From Candidatus Marinacidobacterales bacterium (GTDB lineage: Bacteria > Acidobacteriota > Vicinamibacteria > Marinacidobacterales > DATDRI01), in contig OZ245365.1 of assembly GCA_965226495.1 (NCBI GenBank), forward strand, positions 1,600,001 to 1,664,000: 64,000 nucleotides of DNA, in the 5' to 3' direction. Position 1 is the first letter of the stretch. Every line of letters starts with the position of its first letter. Of this stretch, positions 4,653-11,431 are shown piece by piece. Position numbers and translations under genes: made by a program. The notes below the pieces were generated by a model. That model saw nothing but the letters and a program-made list of their open reading frames with translations, was not told the origin of the DNA and made no database searches.

Positions 4653-4952
4653 TCAAGGGGGTGAAGGGGCGCAGTCCCCGCACAGGAACCTCGATTTGGG
4701 GCTGTCGGTGTTGACGACGCGGGAACAACGAGCGCATTCCCTACGATCGCGTCCCAGGAAATGCTCCGCTTTGCGGTCCACCAAGTCGCCGAGATAGCGC
4801 TTGAGTGCGGCGAGGTCTCCACCCGCGAACCACTGCGAATCCTCGCTCGGATCCTCCCCCGGGTGGCTGCGCTCGGAGGTCGATACCTCGATGCGGCGGC
4901 CTTCGCCATCGTCAGTCTGCCAGGAGCTTTCGATGCGGATCTCGATGGCCAT
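4653..4952 (-). CDS. Small hypothetical protein with C-terminal CxxC-x14-CxxC zinc-finger-like motif
   Basis: 99 aa; GAAGGA RBS; CARC...CGDC; fills the gap between larE and the NAGPA gene. Confidence 0.6.
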   Translation of the reverse strand: MAIEIRIESSWQTDDGEGRRIEVSTSERSHPGEDPSEDSQWFAGGDLAALKRYLGDLVDRKAEHFLGRDRRECARCSRVVNTDSPKSRFLCGDCAPSPP

Positions 4953-5003
4953 AACGTCCTTCGTCTGAAACGGAGAACCGGTTTATCGTCTCGGAAGGAG
5001 GGA

Positions 5004-5885
5004 TTATACCACCGGGAGCTTCAAGGCTGGAAGCACCTCGTTCAGGCTTCCAGTCCGGTAACCTTGGAGGTCGACGGTCACGTACGTGAAGCCGAGCTCT
5101 TTGAACGTCGTCAGCAACTTTGGAACCATGTTTGCCGACAAAGCGCGGGCGATTTCCTCGGGTGCGAACTCGAGCCGTACGAGCTGGTCGTGGTGGCGTA
5201 CTCTAAAATGACGAAATCCCAGCTCACGCAGCGCGCTCTCACCGTCTTCCACCGTTTTGAGCTTTTCGGGTGTTACGGGACTTTCATAAGCGATGCGCGA
5301 GGACAAGCACGCCGATGCGGGCTCGTCGGCGGTGGGAAGAGAGACTTGGTGAGAGAGGTAACGTATCTCCGACTTCGTTAAACCCGCTTCCTCGAGTGGG
5401 CTCCTCACGCTCAAGGCTTTGGCCGCCCGTCGTCCGGGGCGGAAGTCCCCCAAATCGTCGGCGTTCGAGCCGTCAGCGACGCAGTCGAAACCTCGCTCGT
5501 CGGCCAAGCTTGCGAGCCGGGTGTACAACTCGTTCTTACAGTGAAAGCATCGGTCGCTTCCGTTTGCACGATAGGCCTCGATTTCGACCTCGCTCGTTGG
5601 GACGAAAACGTGGGGAATGCCGAATTGGGCACTGATTCGCTTCGCCATTTGCCTTTGATAGTCAGGGTAGCTCGGGCTTTCGCCGGTGACCGCGAGCGCC
5701 GCTTTGCCGAGTGAACGGTGGGCCGCATAGGCCAAGTACGCGCTATCCACTCCGCCGCTGAACGCCACCACAACAGAGCCCATCTCCTTCAGGATCGACT
5801 CCAGCGTCGCGCGCTTCTTCTCCGCCCTCTCGATCAAAGTCTCTCCCGATCCAGCTCCTTCCGTCTTGGTGTCCTGTTCTCTCAA
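5004..5885 (-). CDS. larE: ATP-dependent sulfur transferase, LarE family (PP-loop)
   Basis: AFSGGVDS PP-loop, RCFHCK, DGSNADDLGDFRPG, SACLSSRI, RVRHH, GYRTGSLN. Confidence 0.92.
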   Translation of the reverse strand: MREQDTKTEGAGSGETLIERAEKKRATLESILKEMGSVVVAFSGGVDSAYLAYAAHRSLGKAALAVTGESPSYPDYQRQMAKRISAQFGIPHVFVPTSEVEIEAYRANGSDRCFHCKNELYTRLASLADERGFDCVADGSNADDLGDFRPGRRAAKALSVRSPLEEAGLTKSEIRYLSHQVSLPTADEPASACLSSRIAYESPVTPEKLKTVEDGESALRELGFRHFRVRHHDQLVRLEFAPEEIARALSANMVPKLLTTFKELGFTYVTVDLQGYRTGSLNEVLPALKLPVV

Positions 5886-6055
5886 ATTTCACCCCATTCT
5901 CCGCCTTCAATCGGTGCCAGCTCTAGTTCAATCGGGCCGACGCTCAACACTCGGAGATCCACGCCGCACTCCGGGCAGCTGATCACTTCGCCTTGGTCTA
6001 CATCCAGATCATCAATTTCGATCTCGGACTCACATTCTGGACAATCAGGATGCAT
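5882..6055 (-). CDS. lysW: LysW-like amino-group carrier protein homolog (57 aa, variant C-terminus)
   Basis: Manual translation MHPDCPECESEIEIDDLDVDQGEVISCPECGVDLRVLSVGPIELELAPIEGGEWGEI; two CPEC motifs, very acidic, WGE near the end; GGAAGAGG RBS; TGA overlaps larE TTG. Below the ORF-track length cutoff. Confidence 0.85.
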   Translation of the reverse strand: MHPDCPECESEIEIDDLDVDQGEVISCPECGVDLRVLSVGPIELELAPIEGGEWGEI

Positions 6056-6287
6056 AGCCTCTTCCGTAAAGTACTATGAGACAGTATTGGGTCAATAAAT
6101 TTCACTTCCGCTGTCGTTCTCGAGCCTTCACGAACTGAGATTGAGCGTCAAGAGCTCGTTGTGGATCTCTGCTACTCGTTCCGGAGCAGAATTATAGCAA
6201 CTCTCGAAATGCCATCGCAAGCTTGCCATAATCCTCGATACTATTTAGAATCAAACCTTTAGTTCGACGGTCCGAAGGGGGGAGAGG

Positions 6288-6969: not shown

Positions 6970-9526
6970 CTAGGGGTTTAGGAGAAGGCGGCTTTCCACG
7001 GCTCCGTCGATCTGTACGCGGTCGAAAAGCAGAGGATGGTTGCGACCCGCTTGCCAGTCTCCGTTCTGGTCGAAATAGTGGGGACTCAAAGGGTGGCCCG
7101 ATGCTCCGGTGGGGACTACAGAGCTGGTTGCATTCCAATTGGCGACGTCCATCACTAAACGCAGGGACGTCCCGGCGGGGGCGGCGAACGGATCGCTGAG
7201 TGAAACCATTGCGTTCGCGATGGTGTAGGTCGAGCCGCCAAAAGGTGAGGGGCCGCGATTGAAAATCCACCCGAGCAGGGGGCTCTGTCCCAGCGGGTGC
7301 TCGAACAAAACACCGTGCAGTGCCGCCCAGTCCCATCCCGAGGGATCTTGGCCTTGCCGAGTGCCCAGGAGTGCGATGGCTTCCGCAAAACTTTGCATGA
7401 AAATCGCGTTGCGATCTTCCACTGCCGGCGTGGTGCGGTTGTCCCACCATTCAGAGTTGGGGTCGTCGACGATCGCATAGATGCCACCCGGATGCCCCAT
7501 TTCGACGAAGTCCAAGAAATCTGAATAGAGGGCGTCTGAAATGTCGTCTTGAAAGGTGTTCGCCAGCAGCCGCGCGTAGAATGCTTGATAGAGCGCGGGA
7601 GCGGCACCCCCTCCCATTCTTCCGTCCCAGGTTCTCAATAAACTCTGTGCGTCGCTCGCATCACCGGGATCTACGTTCAATGCCACCACGTAACGGAGTA
7701 GCGACTCGGTTGAGATGTCGTATCGATCCGCCTGGATGGCTTGGAAGTCGGCGGCTCCCAGCTGGGCACGGGATCCGACGAGCGCCGCGATACGGTTGGC
7801 TCGGAACGGGGCCAGTTGATCCCGGCCCAAGGGATAGTCCGTTTCGTCCAGCACCATCTTGTGGTTTGCTGAAATGATGAAGCCTTCTTCGGGGTTCAGG
7901 ACGCACGGGCTTCAACTCATGCGGGATATAACCTTGCCACTCGAATTGCCCCGACGCACCGTCGACGGGTGTGGTCGTCCAGTCGAAACCCGTTCGAACC
8001 GGCACCTCGCCCGCGGGGAAGAAACCGATGTTGCCTTCGACGTCGGCGTAGACGAAGGCGAGCGCCGGGCTCGTCAATGTCCGAAGCGCCTCGGTGAATT
8101 CGAACCAGCCGCTAGCGCGATTCAACCTTAGCAGAGCGAGCGCACTATCACCGTTCCACGGGGCGTCCCAGCGGAGGGCGAGCATTTGGCCGTTCTGCGG
8201 TTGCTCGGAAACGACCACACCGTGTCGACTATGCTGGATCGGTAGGGTGACGGGAGTCCCTCCTGCCACCGAGATTGTCTCCTGAAAGCTCTGAAAGCTT
8301 TCCCATACATCACCCACCGCGTATTGCCCCGGGTCGGACGGGTTGATCCTCTCGACGTAATGGTCTTGGACGTCCGCATAGAGCGCGGTGACTCCCCAAG
8401 CGATGCGATCGTTGTGTCCGATGATCACCATGGGGAGACCGGGGAGACTTGCTCCCGCCACGTTGAGACCTGCGCCAGAGAGATGAATTTCATACCACGT
8501 CGAGGGAATACCGAGTCGCAAGTGCGGATCGGATGCAAGGAGGGGTGCACCGGTCGTCGAGCGTGCACCTGATACGACCCAAGCATTGCTAGCGCCCGCC
8601 CGCAGAAAGCGATGACCGGAGGGAGCGGACAGAGACGCCAGCTTTCCCAGGCCCTGGCCCGCTTCCGTGTTGTTCGCGCTGTCGGTGGGCGGTGGTGCGA
8701 GTCCGGTTAGGAGGTAAGCCGCTTCGATCCCCACCGTTTCTGTCAGTTGTGAGCGCAATAGTTCGACCGATGCGTTCTCGGAGAGCAGAAGCGACATCCA
8801 TTTAACGATGGCCAGACTGTCGGCCGGTTCCCAGGGGCGCGGTTGGAAACCGAGGATCTGGAACTCCGGCGGAAGGCTGCCCTTTTGTGCGGTCAAGTAC
8901 GCGTTCACCCCCTGCGCGTATGCATCTAGTACGGCACGGGCCTCCGGATCCGTTCGTTCCAGCTCCGTGCGGGCGGCCAGACCCAGGCCGAGCCGACGAA
9001 CTCTACGGTCGAGTGATAGCCCGGGCTCTCCCAGAACTTCGGCCAGCGTTCCCGTGCCCATGCGGCGCGAGAGCTCCATCTGGAACAGACGATCTTGCGC
9101 ATGAACGAAACCGGTGGCGCGGGCAACGTCTTCGACACTGGTCCCGAATATGTGAGGGACGCCGAAAGGATCGCGAAGCACCTCGACGGGAGCGGAAAGA
9201 CCGGTCAGTTTCAGCGAGCCGTCGAGCTGAGGTAGTGATGCTTGGGCACGGTAATACAGGTAGCCACCACTGCCGAAGATAACGAGCACGAGGGTCAAGA
9301 ATAGGATCTTCAGCCACAGCGCCATAGGTCCCCGGGGTTGCTTGGGACGGGGAGGGGCCTTTTTACGGGGTGGCTTTCGTGATGGAAGTGCCGCGGGAGG
9401 GCGCTTCGGCGCGCCCGGTTTGCGAGGTGGCGGAAGCTTTTTCGATCCACCGGGTGGGCGAGGTGGTCGGGGGCCCCGGCCGACGATGCTTCGAGGTCGT
9501 CCGGCAGGTTTCATTCGCGGTCTCAC
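6970..9526 (-). pseudogene. Penicillin acylase family (Ntn-hydrolase), frameshifted near 7900
   Basis: GVPHI, AQDRLFQM, GASNAWVVSG nucleophile, ASDPHL, YADVEGNIG in ORF 7661-9526. Homology continues in another frame (VLNPEEGFIISANHKM...) into ORF 6970-7857 (GASGHPLSPHYFDQ). Real lesion or sequencing error. Confidence 0.8.
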
Positions 9527-10014
9527 TTTGCTTCCTGTCGTACATAGGGTCCGCTTCGTCCACCCGACTTTGAGAGAAGGCGGACGTCGTCGATGACGAC
9601 CGCCCGATCGACCGCTTTCACCATGTCGTAAATCGCAAGCGCGGCGACGGAAACGGCAGTGAGTGCTTCCATCTCGACTCCTGTCTTCGCGTTCGTGCGC
9701 ACGGAGGCCTCGATCTCGAAGCCGGTCCCGATATCTCGAATCTCGATCCCCACGTGCTCCAGCGGAAGCGCATGGCAGAGCGGAATCAACTCCGAAGTCT
9801 TCTTCGCCGCCATGATGCCGGCCAGGCGAGCGGTTTCCTCGACGTTGCCTTTGGCGATTTGCCCGTCTCTCACTTTGTCCATCGCTTCGGGAGATATGCG
9901 GACGGTGCCCGCCGCCACCGCCTCCCGCCGGGAAACGGCTTTATCCCCTACGTCCACCATTCGGACGCTCCCGCTCGGGGAAACGTGGGTTAGCTTGGTT
10001 GTGCGGCGTGCCAT
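9523..10014 (-). CDS. moaC: Cyclic pyranopterin monophosphate synthase MoaC
   Basis: MVDVGDK, AGIMAAKKTSELIPLCH, TGVEMEALT, KSGGRSG. Confidence 0.96.
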   Translation of the reverse strand: MARRTTKLTHVSPSGSVRMVDVGDKAVSRREAVAAGTVRISPEAMDKVRDGQIAKGNVEETARLAGIMAAKKTSELIPLCHALPLEHVGIEIRDIGTGFEIEASVRTNAKTGVEMEALTAVSVAALAIYDMVKAVDRAVVIDDVRLLSKSGGRSGPYVRQEAK

Positions 10015-10029
10015 CGGTCCTCTCTAGTG

Positions 10030-10170
10030 CCTCAATGCGCGCTCACTCGTCGATAGGTGGCGCGGGGCCCCACCCCCACCCCCACACCGCCGTCCCTTCG
10101 CCGGCATTCGGCTGCGGGACAGCTGACGGCTCTTGGCGCAGGGTGCCGTGCATTCTTCAGCACCCTGCCA
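10030..10170. repeat. REP-like element; inverted, internally deleted relative of the 42584-42840 copy
   Basis: Reverse complement matches about 42605-42670 joined to 42790-42838; CAGGGTGC...GCACCCTG hairpin overlaps the moeA 3' end. Confidence 0.75.
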
Positions 10171-11431
10171 GGTAAAGAAATCGGTCCAGAGGATACACCT
10201 GGACTGTCTGTCCCGCGGCGAGCCGATCCTCGTCCTCGGGTACGATCAACAACGCGTTTGCTTTAGAGAAAGCGACGATGTCGGCGGACCCGCGTGTCGA
10301 GATCGGATGGGCCGCAATGCCCTCGCCCTCGGGTTCGATCCACCCCGGTAGGAACGCGCGTCGGGCTCCCCTACTCGATAGAGAATCTCGGAGCGTGGCC
10401 GACAGGAGAGGGCGGTGTGGCTCGCTGCAGCCCTCCATCTTGGCCAGAGCGGGACGAACGAAAAGCTCGAACGTCACCATGGTTGATACGGGATTGCCGG
10501 GAAGGCCGAACACCAGTCCGCCGGCGTCGGCCGAGATCCCGAAAACGAGTGGTTTTCCTGGTTTAAGGGCCACACGATCGAAAAGCGTGCGCACGCCGAG
10601 CTCGCCGAGAACGCCCTCCACCAAATCGAAGCGGCCCATCGAGACACCGCCGGACAGCAGGAGCACGTCTGCACGCAGTCCGTCTCGGATCAACTCTCGA
10701 AGCGATTCTTCCGTGTCTTTCGCCACACCTAGATACTGCACCTCCGCTCCGGCGGAGCGTGCCTGGGCGACTAGAGAAAAACCGTTGCTGTTTCGAATCT
10801 TGCCCGGCCCGGGTTTGGAAGCAGGATCGACGAGCTCGTCGCCGGTCGCGATGACGGCGAGGCGAGGGCGACGGCCTACCGATACCTTGACTCTGCCGAC
10901 CGTTGCCGCGACCGCCACCGAGGCCGCATCCAAGCGAGTACCCTTCCAGAGAACGACGTCACCCTCCTTGACTTCATCACCGCGGGGCGCGATGTTTTGC
11001 CCCGAACGTACGGTCTCAATGATCTCGACGAGCTCTCCCTCGAGGCGCGTTTTCTCAACCATCTGTACCGCGTCTGTTCCTTCGGGTACGGGAGCGCCGG
11101 TCATCACTTGAGCGGCCTCGCCACCGTTGACATGGAATGCGGGTGAAGCTCCAGCGGGGACAACACCGACGACGCGAAGCTGGGATGGTGGTGATTTCAC
11201 ATCTGCAGAACGCAGTGCAAAACCGTCTACGGCAGACCGAGGAAAGGGAGGCAGATCGAGATCGGAAACGATGTCTTCGGCAAGCAGGCGCCCCGGCGCG
11301 TCTTGAAAGTCGACGTTTTCCGTCGGAAGCGCGCGCGCGTTGTCGAGAACGATTTCGAGTGCTTTTTGGACGGGGATCAAATGCGGCTCCTGGAGAGCGC
11401 CCATCGTATCCAAACGTGGATCGAGTGTCAA
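10157..11431 (-). CDS. moeA: Molybdopterin molybdotransferase MoeA (Glp)
   Basis: PPFPRSAVDGFA, MTGAPVP, TGDEL, SGGVSMG, KPGKP, GLPGNPVS. Start may be ATG 11404. Confidence 0.95.
   Translation of the reverse strand: MTLDPRLDTMGALQEPHLIPVQKALEIVLDNARALPTENVDFQDAPGRLLAEDIVSDLDLPPFPRSAVDGFALRSADVKSPPSQLRVVGVVPAGASPAFHVNGGEAAQVMTGAPVPEGTDAVQMVEKTRLEGELVEIIETVRSGQNIAPRGDEVKEGDVVLWKGTRLDAASVAVAATVGRVKVSVGRRPRLAVIATGDELVDPASKPGPGKIRNSNGFSLVAQARSAGAEVQYLGVAKDTEESLRELIRDGLRADVLLLSGGVSMGRFDLVEGVLGELGVRTLFDRVALKPGKPLVFGISADAGGLVFGLPGNPVSTMVTFELFVRPALAKMEGCSEPHRPLLSATLRDSLSSRGARRAFLPGWIEPEGEGIAAHPISTRGSADIVAFSKANALLIVPEDEDRLAAGQTVQVYPLDRFLYLAGC

Follow-up and report, generated by a model that had tools for sequence, protein, structure and literature searches.

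A LysW-like zinc-ribbon protein encoded directly upstream of LarE in Vicinamibacteria, a candidate accessory partner of the iron-sulfur enzyme

The window analysed here is a 64,000-nucleotide (nt) stretch of contig OZ245365.1 from a Candidatus Marinacidobacterales bacterium (positions 1,600,001 to 1,664,000 of the forward strand), in which a 57-codon gene for a LysW-like zinc-ribbon protein overlaps the predicted start of the gene for LarE, an ATP-dependent sulfur insertase. Judged from its sequence, the small protein is a LysW paralogue that has departed from lysine and arginine biosynthesis and is not a functional LysW. We propose that it acts as a non-catalytic accessory partner of LarE, and we put the probability of this at about 50%. 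To our knowledge, LysW-type carriers have been described only with ATP-grasp ligases, in lysine, arginine and some secondary-metabolite pathways, and LarE has been described as acting alone, its sulfur supply in vivo being still open. No literature describing a LysW-like/LarE pairing was found; the two names are co-mentioned only in an unrelated context. The class-wide overlapping pair reported here would point to an accessory factor of iron-sulfur LarE that has so far gone unrecognised or, less probably, to new protein-borne sulfur chemistry.

The small open reading frame (ORF) translates as MHPDCPECESEIEIDDLDVDQGEVISCPECGVDLRVLSVGPIELELAPIEGGEWGEI, and the purine-rich GGAAGAGG stands 2 nt ahead of its ATG. 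The protein carries two CPEC motifs (C5/C8 and C27/C30), has a net charge of −16 and ends in IEGGEWGEI, which matches the EDWGE tail of LysW with one extra hydrophobic residue. The ORF, its two motifs, its tail and the overlap of its TGA with the larE TTG had been listed in a preliminary description made from the DNA letters and their ORFs, and all are found in the sequence. Pfam PF21344 (Zn_ribbon_LysW) matches the protein with 52.9 bits (cut-off 27), the only such match in the genome. Thermus thermophilus LysW (PDB: 3wwl) aligns with residues 4–56 at an expectation value (E) of 1.1e-8, and in this alignment the small protein extends one residue past the terminal Glu of LysW. The LysW likeness noted earlier holds at the level of the Pfam domain, but the protein stays below the cut-offs of both NCBIfam LysW models, which give 44.6 bits for TIGR01206 (cut-off 53.2) and 45.6 bits for NF041070 (cut-off 75). 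Some homologues are named LysW by the Joint Genome Institute (JGI), and the ESM Atlas contains the exact sequence, its matches there being LysW-named clusters only.

The position of the small gene ahead of LarE is widely conserved. A scan that covered each species by one genome matched at least 600 stretches, of which at least 248 encode relatives of the small protein, almost all in records titled Vicinamibacteria, Candidatus Marinacidobacterales or Acidobacteriota; the best 80 loci were analysed. At 65 of these the next gene downstream, on the same strand, is LarE, and three further loci with fragmented LarE or small-gene matches (L029, L048 and L064) bring the paired total to 68. The region alignable to LarE begins no more than 30 nt past the small-gene stop in 48 of the 65, with a median of 17 nt. 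At the remaining 12 loci no LarE was found nearby: nine belong to a separate subfamily, here called DGDYS, and the others are L022, L039 and L049. Members of the DGDYS subfamily (L072, L088–L092 and L094–L096) are stand-alone LysW-like zinc ribbons with the tail (S/T)EDGD(Y/F)S, found in Terriglobia- or Acidobacteriaceae-titled records with neither LarE nor LysX nearby.

An even sample of the class Vicinamibacteria (81 genomes, 76 with LarE) gave a corresponding picture, with a PF21344 match 30–220 nt upstream of LarE on the same strand (606 nt in one case) in 44 of the 76. The adjacency noticed at a single locus is therefore kept in 68/80 related loci and in 44/76 LarE-bearing class genomes. 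These pairs span 10 of the 16 LarE-bearing families, and LarE identity to the window's enzyme falls as low as 44% among them. Pairing was not found in family f2 of the window's own order (0/19, eight of these genomes having no PF21344 match at all), in f9 (0/4) or in f12 (0/3), where LarE instead follows LarC. This LarC-then-LarE layout, with no LysW-like gene upstream, is seen at G027:C81, G042:C1 and G075:C251. In a phylum sample of 121 genomes, one of the 82 LarE-bearing genomes outside the class (G139) has the pair, with the unpublished G126 scored as non-adjacent. As for co-occurrence, the pair goes with LarC, which was found in all but three (G007, G015 and G072) of the 44 paired class genomes, a count of 41. 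The rest of the gene neighbourhood varies across the class; clustering by greedy ORF calling was noisy, its largest cluster consisting of antisense ORFs, and neighbour counts were taken from tblastn. No LysW–LarE fusion occurs among three longer homologues (105–128 residues), which is weak evidence either way.

Among 55 aligned members of the LarE-linked family, C5, P6, C8, E13, D15, D18, D20, G22, C27, P28, C30, G31, L34, V36, P41 and L44 are invariant. The net charge has a median of −17 across the 68 linked homologues, and 65 of the 68 have an acidic tail with one Trp. Tails were typed over the same 68 loci: 48 end in W-x-E, seven in W-x, five, the window's clade, in W-x-[E/D]-hydrophobic, four in W-x-x-x and one in W-x-x, with three others, two of them apparently truncated or frameshifted. 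The last residue accordingly varies (E, I, S, T, Q, N or A), so that neither Glu nor Ile at the end is a hallmark of the family. What stays constant is the zinc ribbon, an extreme acidity and a single Trp close to the C-terminus.

The extra terminal Ile, Met or Leu is nonetheless a genuine, clade-specific feature and not an assembly slip, because the tail region is unchanged in independent contigs and a W-[G/D]-E-[I/M/L] end is shared by 14 of 21 aligned close homologues. Positions 5868–5911 are identical, without substitution or indel, in contigs of three runs from three studies, one run being possibly the source of the window, and no canonical WGE-stop end was seen; at least 95% of the sampled words of 4900–6200 are present in 16 runs of seven studies. 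The altered C-terminus reported in the preliminary description is thus real, but the weight placed there on the extra Ile is not borne out by the variation of the last residue over the 68 homologues. Two variants of the protein were observed in passing. At window position 5934 the contig of one run (X13, depth 13.7) has C for G, which by codon reading turns the otherwise invariant Pro41 into Arg, and in some LarE-linked homologues (L069, L075, L078–L080, L083–L086 and L093; also L133, from G139) poly-Asp/Glu inserts of 30–40 residues precede the final (D/E)W(D/E)E.

LysW and ArgW (TIGR01206, NF041070 and PF21344; PDB: 3wwl, 5k2m and 3vpb) resemble the small protein in their length of about 55 residues, their four-Cys zinc ribbon, their acidic globule and their flexible acidic tail with Trp, but they end in EDWGE, whereas the window's protein ends in GEWGE plus Ile. 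Across the wider LarE-linked family, Trp is followed by a residue other than Gly and the terminal Glu is not fixed; DVDxGE and other family-specific invariant residues are present. The downstream neighbour of the small gene is LarE and not an ATP-grasp LysX, which the genome lacks. According to the available part of PMC10433800, LysW is defined by its four (or three) zinc-binding Cys, by an EDWGE end whose terminal Glu carries the substrate, and by recognition through LysX/ArgX. Only the first of these three features, the zinc-ribbon Cys, is found in the small protein; its tail reads GEWGEI, with Ile following the Glu.

True LysW is present in relatives and stands apart. Among the PF21344 matches of the class, canonical LysW proteins with an EEDWGE end score highest, and all four that were tested (L099, L101, L102 and L104) exceed the TIGR01206 cut-off, with 61.6–72.7 bits. 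These canonical copies are adjoined by LysX: LysX, [LysW]-aminoadipate kinase, ArgC/LysY or [LysW]-lysine hydrolase is found at four of five canonical loci (G032, G034, G037 and G043), and the reductase LysY only at the fifth (G061). Three genomes (G037, G043 and G061) hold both a canonical LysW and a LarE-linked copy. In a tree built from 45 alignment columns, the four canonical rows split from the 79 others with modest support (80/67). The idea of a repurposed LysW-fold protein, raised in the preliminary description, holds up against these comparisons, and automatic "LysW" labels in Acidobacteriota do not imply an aminoadipate lysine pathway.

The host genome, one contig of 6.34 Mb with a completeness of 94.8%, agrees with this separation. 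No RimK/LysX ligase exceeds the cut-off in it, the best of eight weak TIGR00768 matches reaching 45.8 bits against 143.4, and diaminopimelate decarboxylase (LysA) is present with 464 bits (cut-off 298). Lysine is therefore made by the diaminopimelate route, and a LysW would have no loading enzyme in this host. The LarE of the window is the sole LarE of the genome, and LarA (Lar_N, 128 bits), LarB (293 bits, cut-off 175) and LarC (441 bits) are scattered over the genome outside the window. Since it is the only LarE and the other Lar proteins are encoded elsewhere in the genome, this enzyme is most likely an ordinary LarE that makes the nickel-pincer cofactor. It had been noted earlier that the window holds neither lysX nor larA, larB or larC, and indeed none of the genome's RimK/LysX, LarA, LarB or LarC matches falls inside it, lysZ, lysY, lysJ and lysK having had no individual searches. 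The idea of a stand-alone thio-modification system without the Lar pathway is not supported by the genome-wide view, in which the sole LarE is accompanied by LarA, LarB and LarC and in which paired genomes of the class regularly contain LarC.

In the synthesis of the nickel-pincer nucleotide cofactor, LarE makes the dithiocarboxylate precursor from pyridinium-3,5-biscarboxylate mononucleotide. The window's LarE has 293 residues, carries SGGVDS, RCFHCK and SACLSSR, and matches TIGR00268 with 313 bits (cut-off 150) and Lactobacillus plantarum LarE (PDB: 5udq) with E 2.4e-36; its C193 falls one residue after L. plantarum Cys176 in this alignment, in agreement with PMC9283937. In the available part of PMC9283937, LarE is described as a PP-loop enzyme that adenylates carboxylates, makes thiocarboxylates and resembles TtuA, and the CXXC-C motif holds a [4Fe-4S] cluster in the Thermotoga maritima enzyme. 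Residues S43, G44, G45, D47, S48, C113, C116 and C193 are invariant in 54 linked LarEs, and the PP-loop SGGVDS and the three Cys are invariant in 20 unlinked LarEs as well. All catalytic residues are the same in both groups.

Outside the catalytic residues, three positions track the pairing in this comparison of 54 linked and 20 unlinked LarEs, which is confounded by shared ancestry: S178 (54/54 linked, 1/20 unlinked), T185 (50/54 and 3/20) and R225 (53/54 and 4/20). R225 lies three residues ahead of the RVR motif, which aligns with L. plantarum RVRFH (Arg212/Arg214) and whose Arg residues bind the substrate phosphate (PMC9283937, available part). The pattern would fit a docking site near the active cleft.

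Translational coupling from the small gene to LarE, asserted in the preliminary description, is plausible. The TGA/TTG overlap is present, but the LarE start is uncertain because a second in-frame TTG occurs at 5837..5835, 16 codons into the ORF, and because the 20-odd N-terminal residues are not conserved among relatives. Metatranscriptome data of one run gave two 151-nt contigs, both within larE (5365–5515 and 5527–5675) with the small gene uncovered, which is too little to show transcription or co-transcription. Co-folding of LarE with the small protein returned "no answer" (score 0.00) and counts neither for nor against binding.

We suggest the following mechanism. The small protein would be made together with [4Fe-4S]-type LarE in Vicinamibacteria and would bind it physically, its acidic zinc-ribbon globule docking on a basic LarE surface in the way LysW docks on its enzymes, with no covalent loading. 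LysW-like recognition features are retained: the four Cys, E13, D15, D18, D20 and G22 are invariant, and the acidic one-Trp tail is kept in 65 of 68. The proposal draws on these features, on the LysW fold without LysW function, on the conserved gene coupling, on the separation from true LysW, on the ordinary Lar setting of LarE and on the three LarE positions that track the pairing. The flexible tail with its conserved Trp may reach toward the substrate/cluster cleft of LarE, where it could influence activity by gating or protecting the open iron site, or by aiding the hand-over of substrate or sulfur.

Several points weigh against the proposed partnership. LarE of this type can do without the small protein elsewhere: the LarEs of family f2, none of which (0/19) has the partner upstream, keep every catalytic residue, and T. 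maritima LarE turns over catalytically alone with IscS and cysteine (PMC9283937, available part). One genome assembled as a single 4.09-Mb contig (G018, locus L039) retains an intact LarE-type small gene ending in ...REDEEWQE but lacks both LarE (at E≤1e-20) and LarC (at E≤1e-30). A LarE-type small gene lies far from LarE in G009, G010, G011 and G064, and the LarE of G059 has the residues of linked enzymes, yet only a canonical LysW was found there. To these can be added the DGDYS subfamily, which has no LarE nearby (9/80 loci).

Alternatively, the two genes may share a transcript while their products have unrelated functions; the acidic zinc ribbon would then bind, for example, metal cations or some other protein, and the gene order would be synteny inherited within one class. 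In favour of this, G018 keeps the small gene in the absence of LarE, four other genomes keep it at a distance from LarE, the DGDYS subfamily stands alone, pairing is nearly limited to one class (1/82 outside), and the Asp/Glu tails of 30–40 residues resemble cation-binding proteins. Mere synteny is harder to reconcile with an abutting or overlapping order that is kept across 10 families while LarE identity falls to about 45%, with other neighbours that are not conserved across the class, and with three LarE positions that track the pairing. We regard it as rather unlikely, though as an alternative to be taken seriously.

A further alternative, raised in the preliminary description, makes the small protein a carrier or substrate of LarE: the enzyme would adenylate its C-terminal carboxylate and convert it to a thiocarboxylate, or the tail would feed sulfur to the open cluster iron, as TtuB does to TtuA. 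The chemistry is of the right kind, as LarE adenylates carboxylates, makes thiocarboxylates and is TtuA-like (PMC9283937, available part), and the tail of true LysW enters the active site of its partner with the substrate on the terminal Glu (PMC10433800, available part). The tail of the small protein is likewise acidic with a conserved Trp, ends in W-x-E in 48/68, and offers a C-terminal alpha-carboxylate whatever its last residue; the overlap of the two genes also speaks for a carrier. A carrier is nevertheless improbable in our view, weakened by the variable last residue and by the ordinary Lar context. Known sulfur carriers end in a fixed Gly-Gly, whereas the last residue here may be E, I, S, T, Q, N or A. 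The single LarE is already needed for LarA, LarB and LarC, and unlinked LarEs share identical catalytic residues. The pair has no conserved gene for a sulfur acceptor or for activation at its side, the recurrent neighbours being only MoeA–MoaC (18/80) and, in one order, the hypothetical gene orf99 described below. Slightly more doubtful still is a zinc-ribbon protein thiocarboxylate in which LarE either thiolates the C-terminus of the small protein or obtains sulfur from this protein, with orf99 as a further component. If true, a carrier would represent a new class of sulfur carriers unrelated to the ubiquitin-like ones. That the gene encodes a genuine LysW/ArgW of the host's lysine or arginine pathway, next to LarE by chance, is extremely improbable in spite of the PF21344 match, the full-length likeness to a solved LysW and the JGI naming of some homologues, given scores below both equivalog cut-offs, a GEWGEI tail in place of EDWGE with its terminal Glu, the lack of a LysX/RimK ligase over the cut-off alongside LysA, and the separate true LysW clusters of relatives, three genomes having both forms.

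The proposed accessory partner can be set beside known LarE and sulfur-transfer systems. TtuB has the ubiquitin-like beta-grasp fold and bears its thiocarboxylate on a Gly-Gly end. The small protein differs in its zinc-ribbon fold and in having no fixed last residue, and next to its gene no E1-like activator was seen; a ubiquitin-like sulfur carrier of the ThiS/MoaD/TtuB type was considered and rejected, the protein being a LysW-type zinc ribbon with the end GEI. Like TtuA–TtuB, the pair would combine a PP-loop enzyme with a tri-Cys cluster and a small protein whose tail could reach the open iron (likeness to TtuA: PMC9283937, available part). The T. maritima LarE (PMC9283937, available part) and the sacrificial L. 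plantarum LarE (PDB: 5udq) share with the window's enzyme the PP-loop SGGxDS, the CXXC...C triad and the RVR phosphate site. The available part of PMC9283937 mentions no partner protein for the T. maritima enzyme, whereas the window's LarE is flanked by two small zinc-ribbon genes. Likewise, the terms "accessory", "neighbor", "zinc" and "sulfur donor" do not occur in the available part of PMC11796402, a text on LarE.

Table 1. Coordinates of the small gene, LarE and orf99 in the window
Feature	Position	Strand	Evidence or remark
LysW-like acidic zinc-ribbon ORF, 57 residues	5882..6055	minus	ORF list; PF21344; alignment to 3wwl
Cys ligand codons of the small protein	C5 6041-6043; C8 6032-6034; C27 5975-5977; C30 5966-5968	minus	
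Tail E50-G-G-E-W-G-E-I57	5885..5908	minus	Trp54 codon 5894-5896
Gene overlap TTGA, 4 nt	5882..5885	minus	small-gene TGA 5884..5882; LarE TTG 5885..5883
LarE, PP-loop ATP-dependent sulfur insertase, tri-Cys [4Fe-4S] type	5004..5885	minus	TIGR00268; 5udq alignment
LarE motifs	PP-loop SGGVDS 5742-5759; C113xxC116 5538-5549; C193 5307-5309	minus	
orf99, conserved hypothetical, 99 residues, C-terminal CxxC...CxxC	4653..4952	minus	52 nt downstream of LarE

The second small gene, orf99 (Table 1), is a real conserved gene and probably the third of the operon; with it, LarE in the window's order has another small zinc-ribbon companion. Its 32 homologues measure 85–139 residues, mostly 95–104; in them an N-terminus MAIEIRIES... 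and C73, C76, C91 and C94 are invariant. The protein matches no Pfam family. Its AlphaFold2 model is confident, with a mean predicted local distance difference test (pLDDT) score of 86.5; with this model Foldseek found no PDB match at E≤0.001, and the best VIA-align Z score was 5.6, under the 7–8 typical of chance. The gene was found in 25 of the 81 class genomes, all of the window's order: f1 (3/3, including the window), f2 (19/19) and f3 (3/6). In 24 of the 25 carriers LarE is its immediate upstream neighbour; in the exception, G011, it follows the LysW-like gene and LarE is elsewhere. In f2 it adjoins LarE although no LysW-like gene is paired with LarE there, and the f2 frame matching orf99 is open for 343–741 residues and may belong to a longer protein.

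Upstream of the pair and on its strand, MoeA and MoaC genes are found in 17–18 of the 80 loci (L019, L026, L028–L031, L038, L039, L041, L045, L046, L049, L052–L054, L064 and L065, and the window, at 9523..11431 on the minus strand), and MoaC stands directly upstream of the pair (63–141 nt) in five. A penicillin amidase gene of the window is split into two overlapping ORFs (6970..9526, minus strand), of which 7661..9526 corresponds to PF01804 positions 1–402 and 6970..7857 to positions 418–674, reflecting a frameshift, a pseudogene or an assembly error; the ORF at 7661..9526 has a long Pro/Lys/Arg-rich N-terminus.

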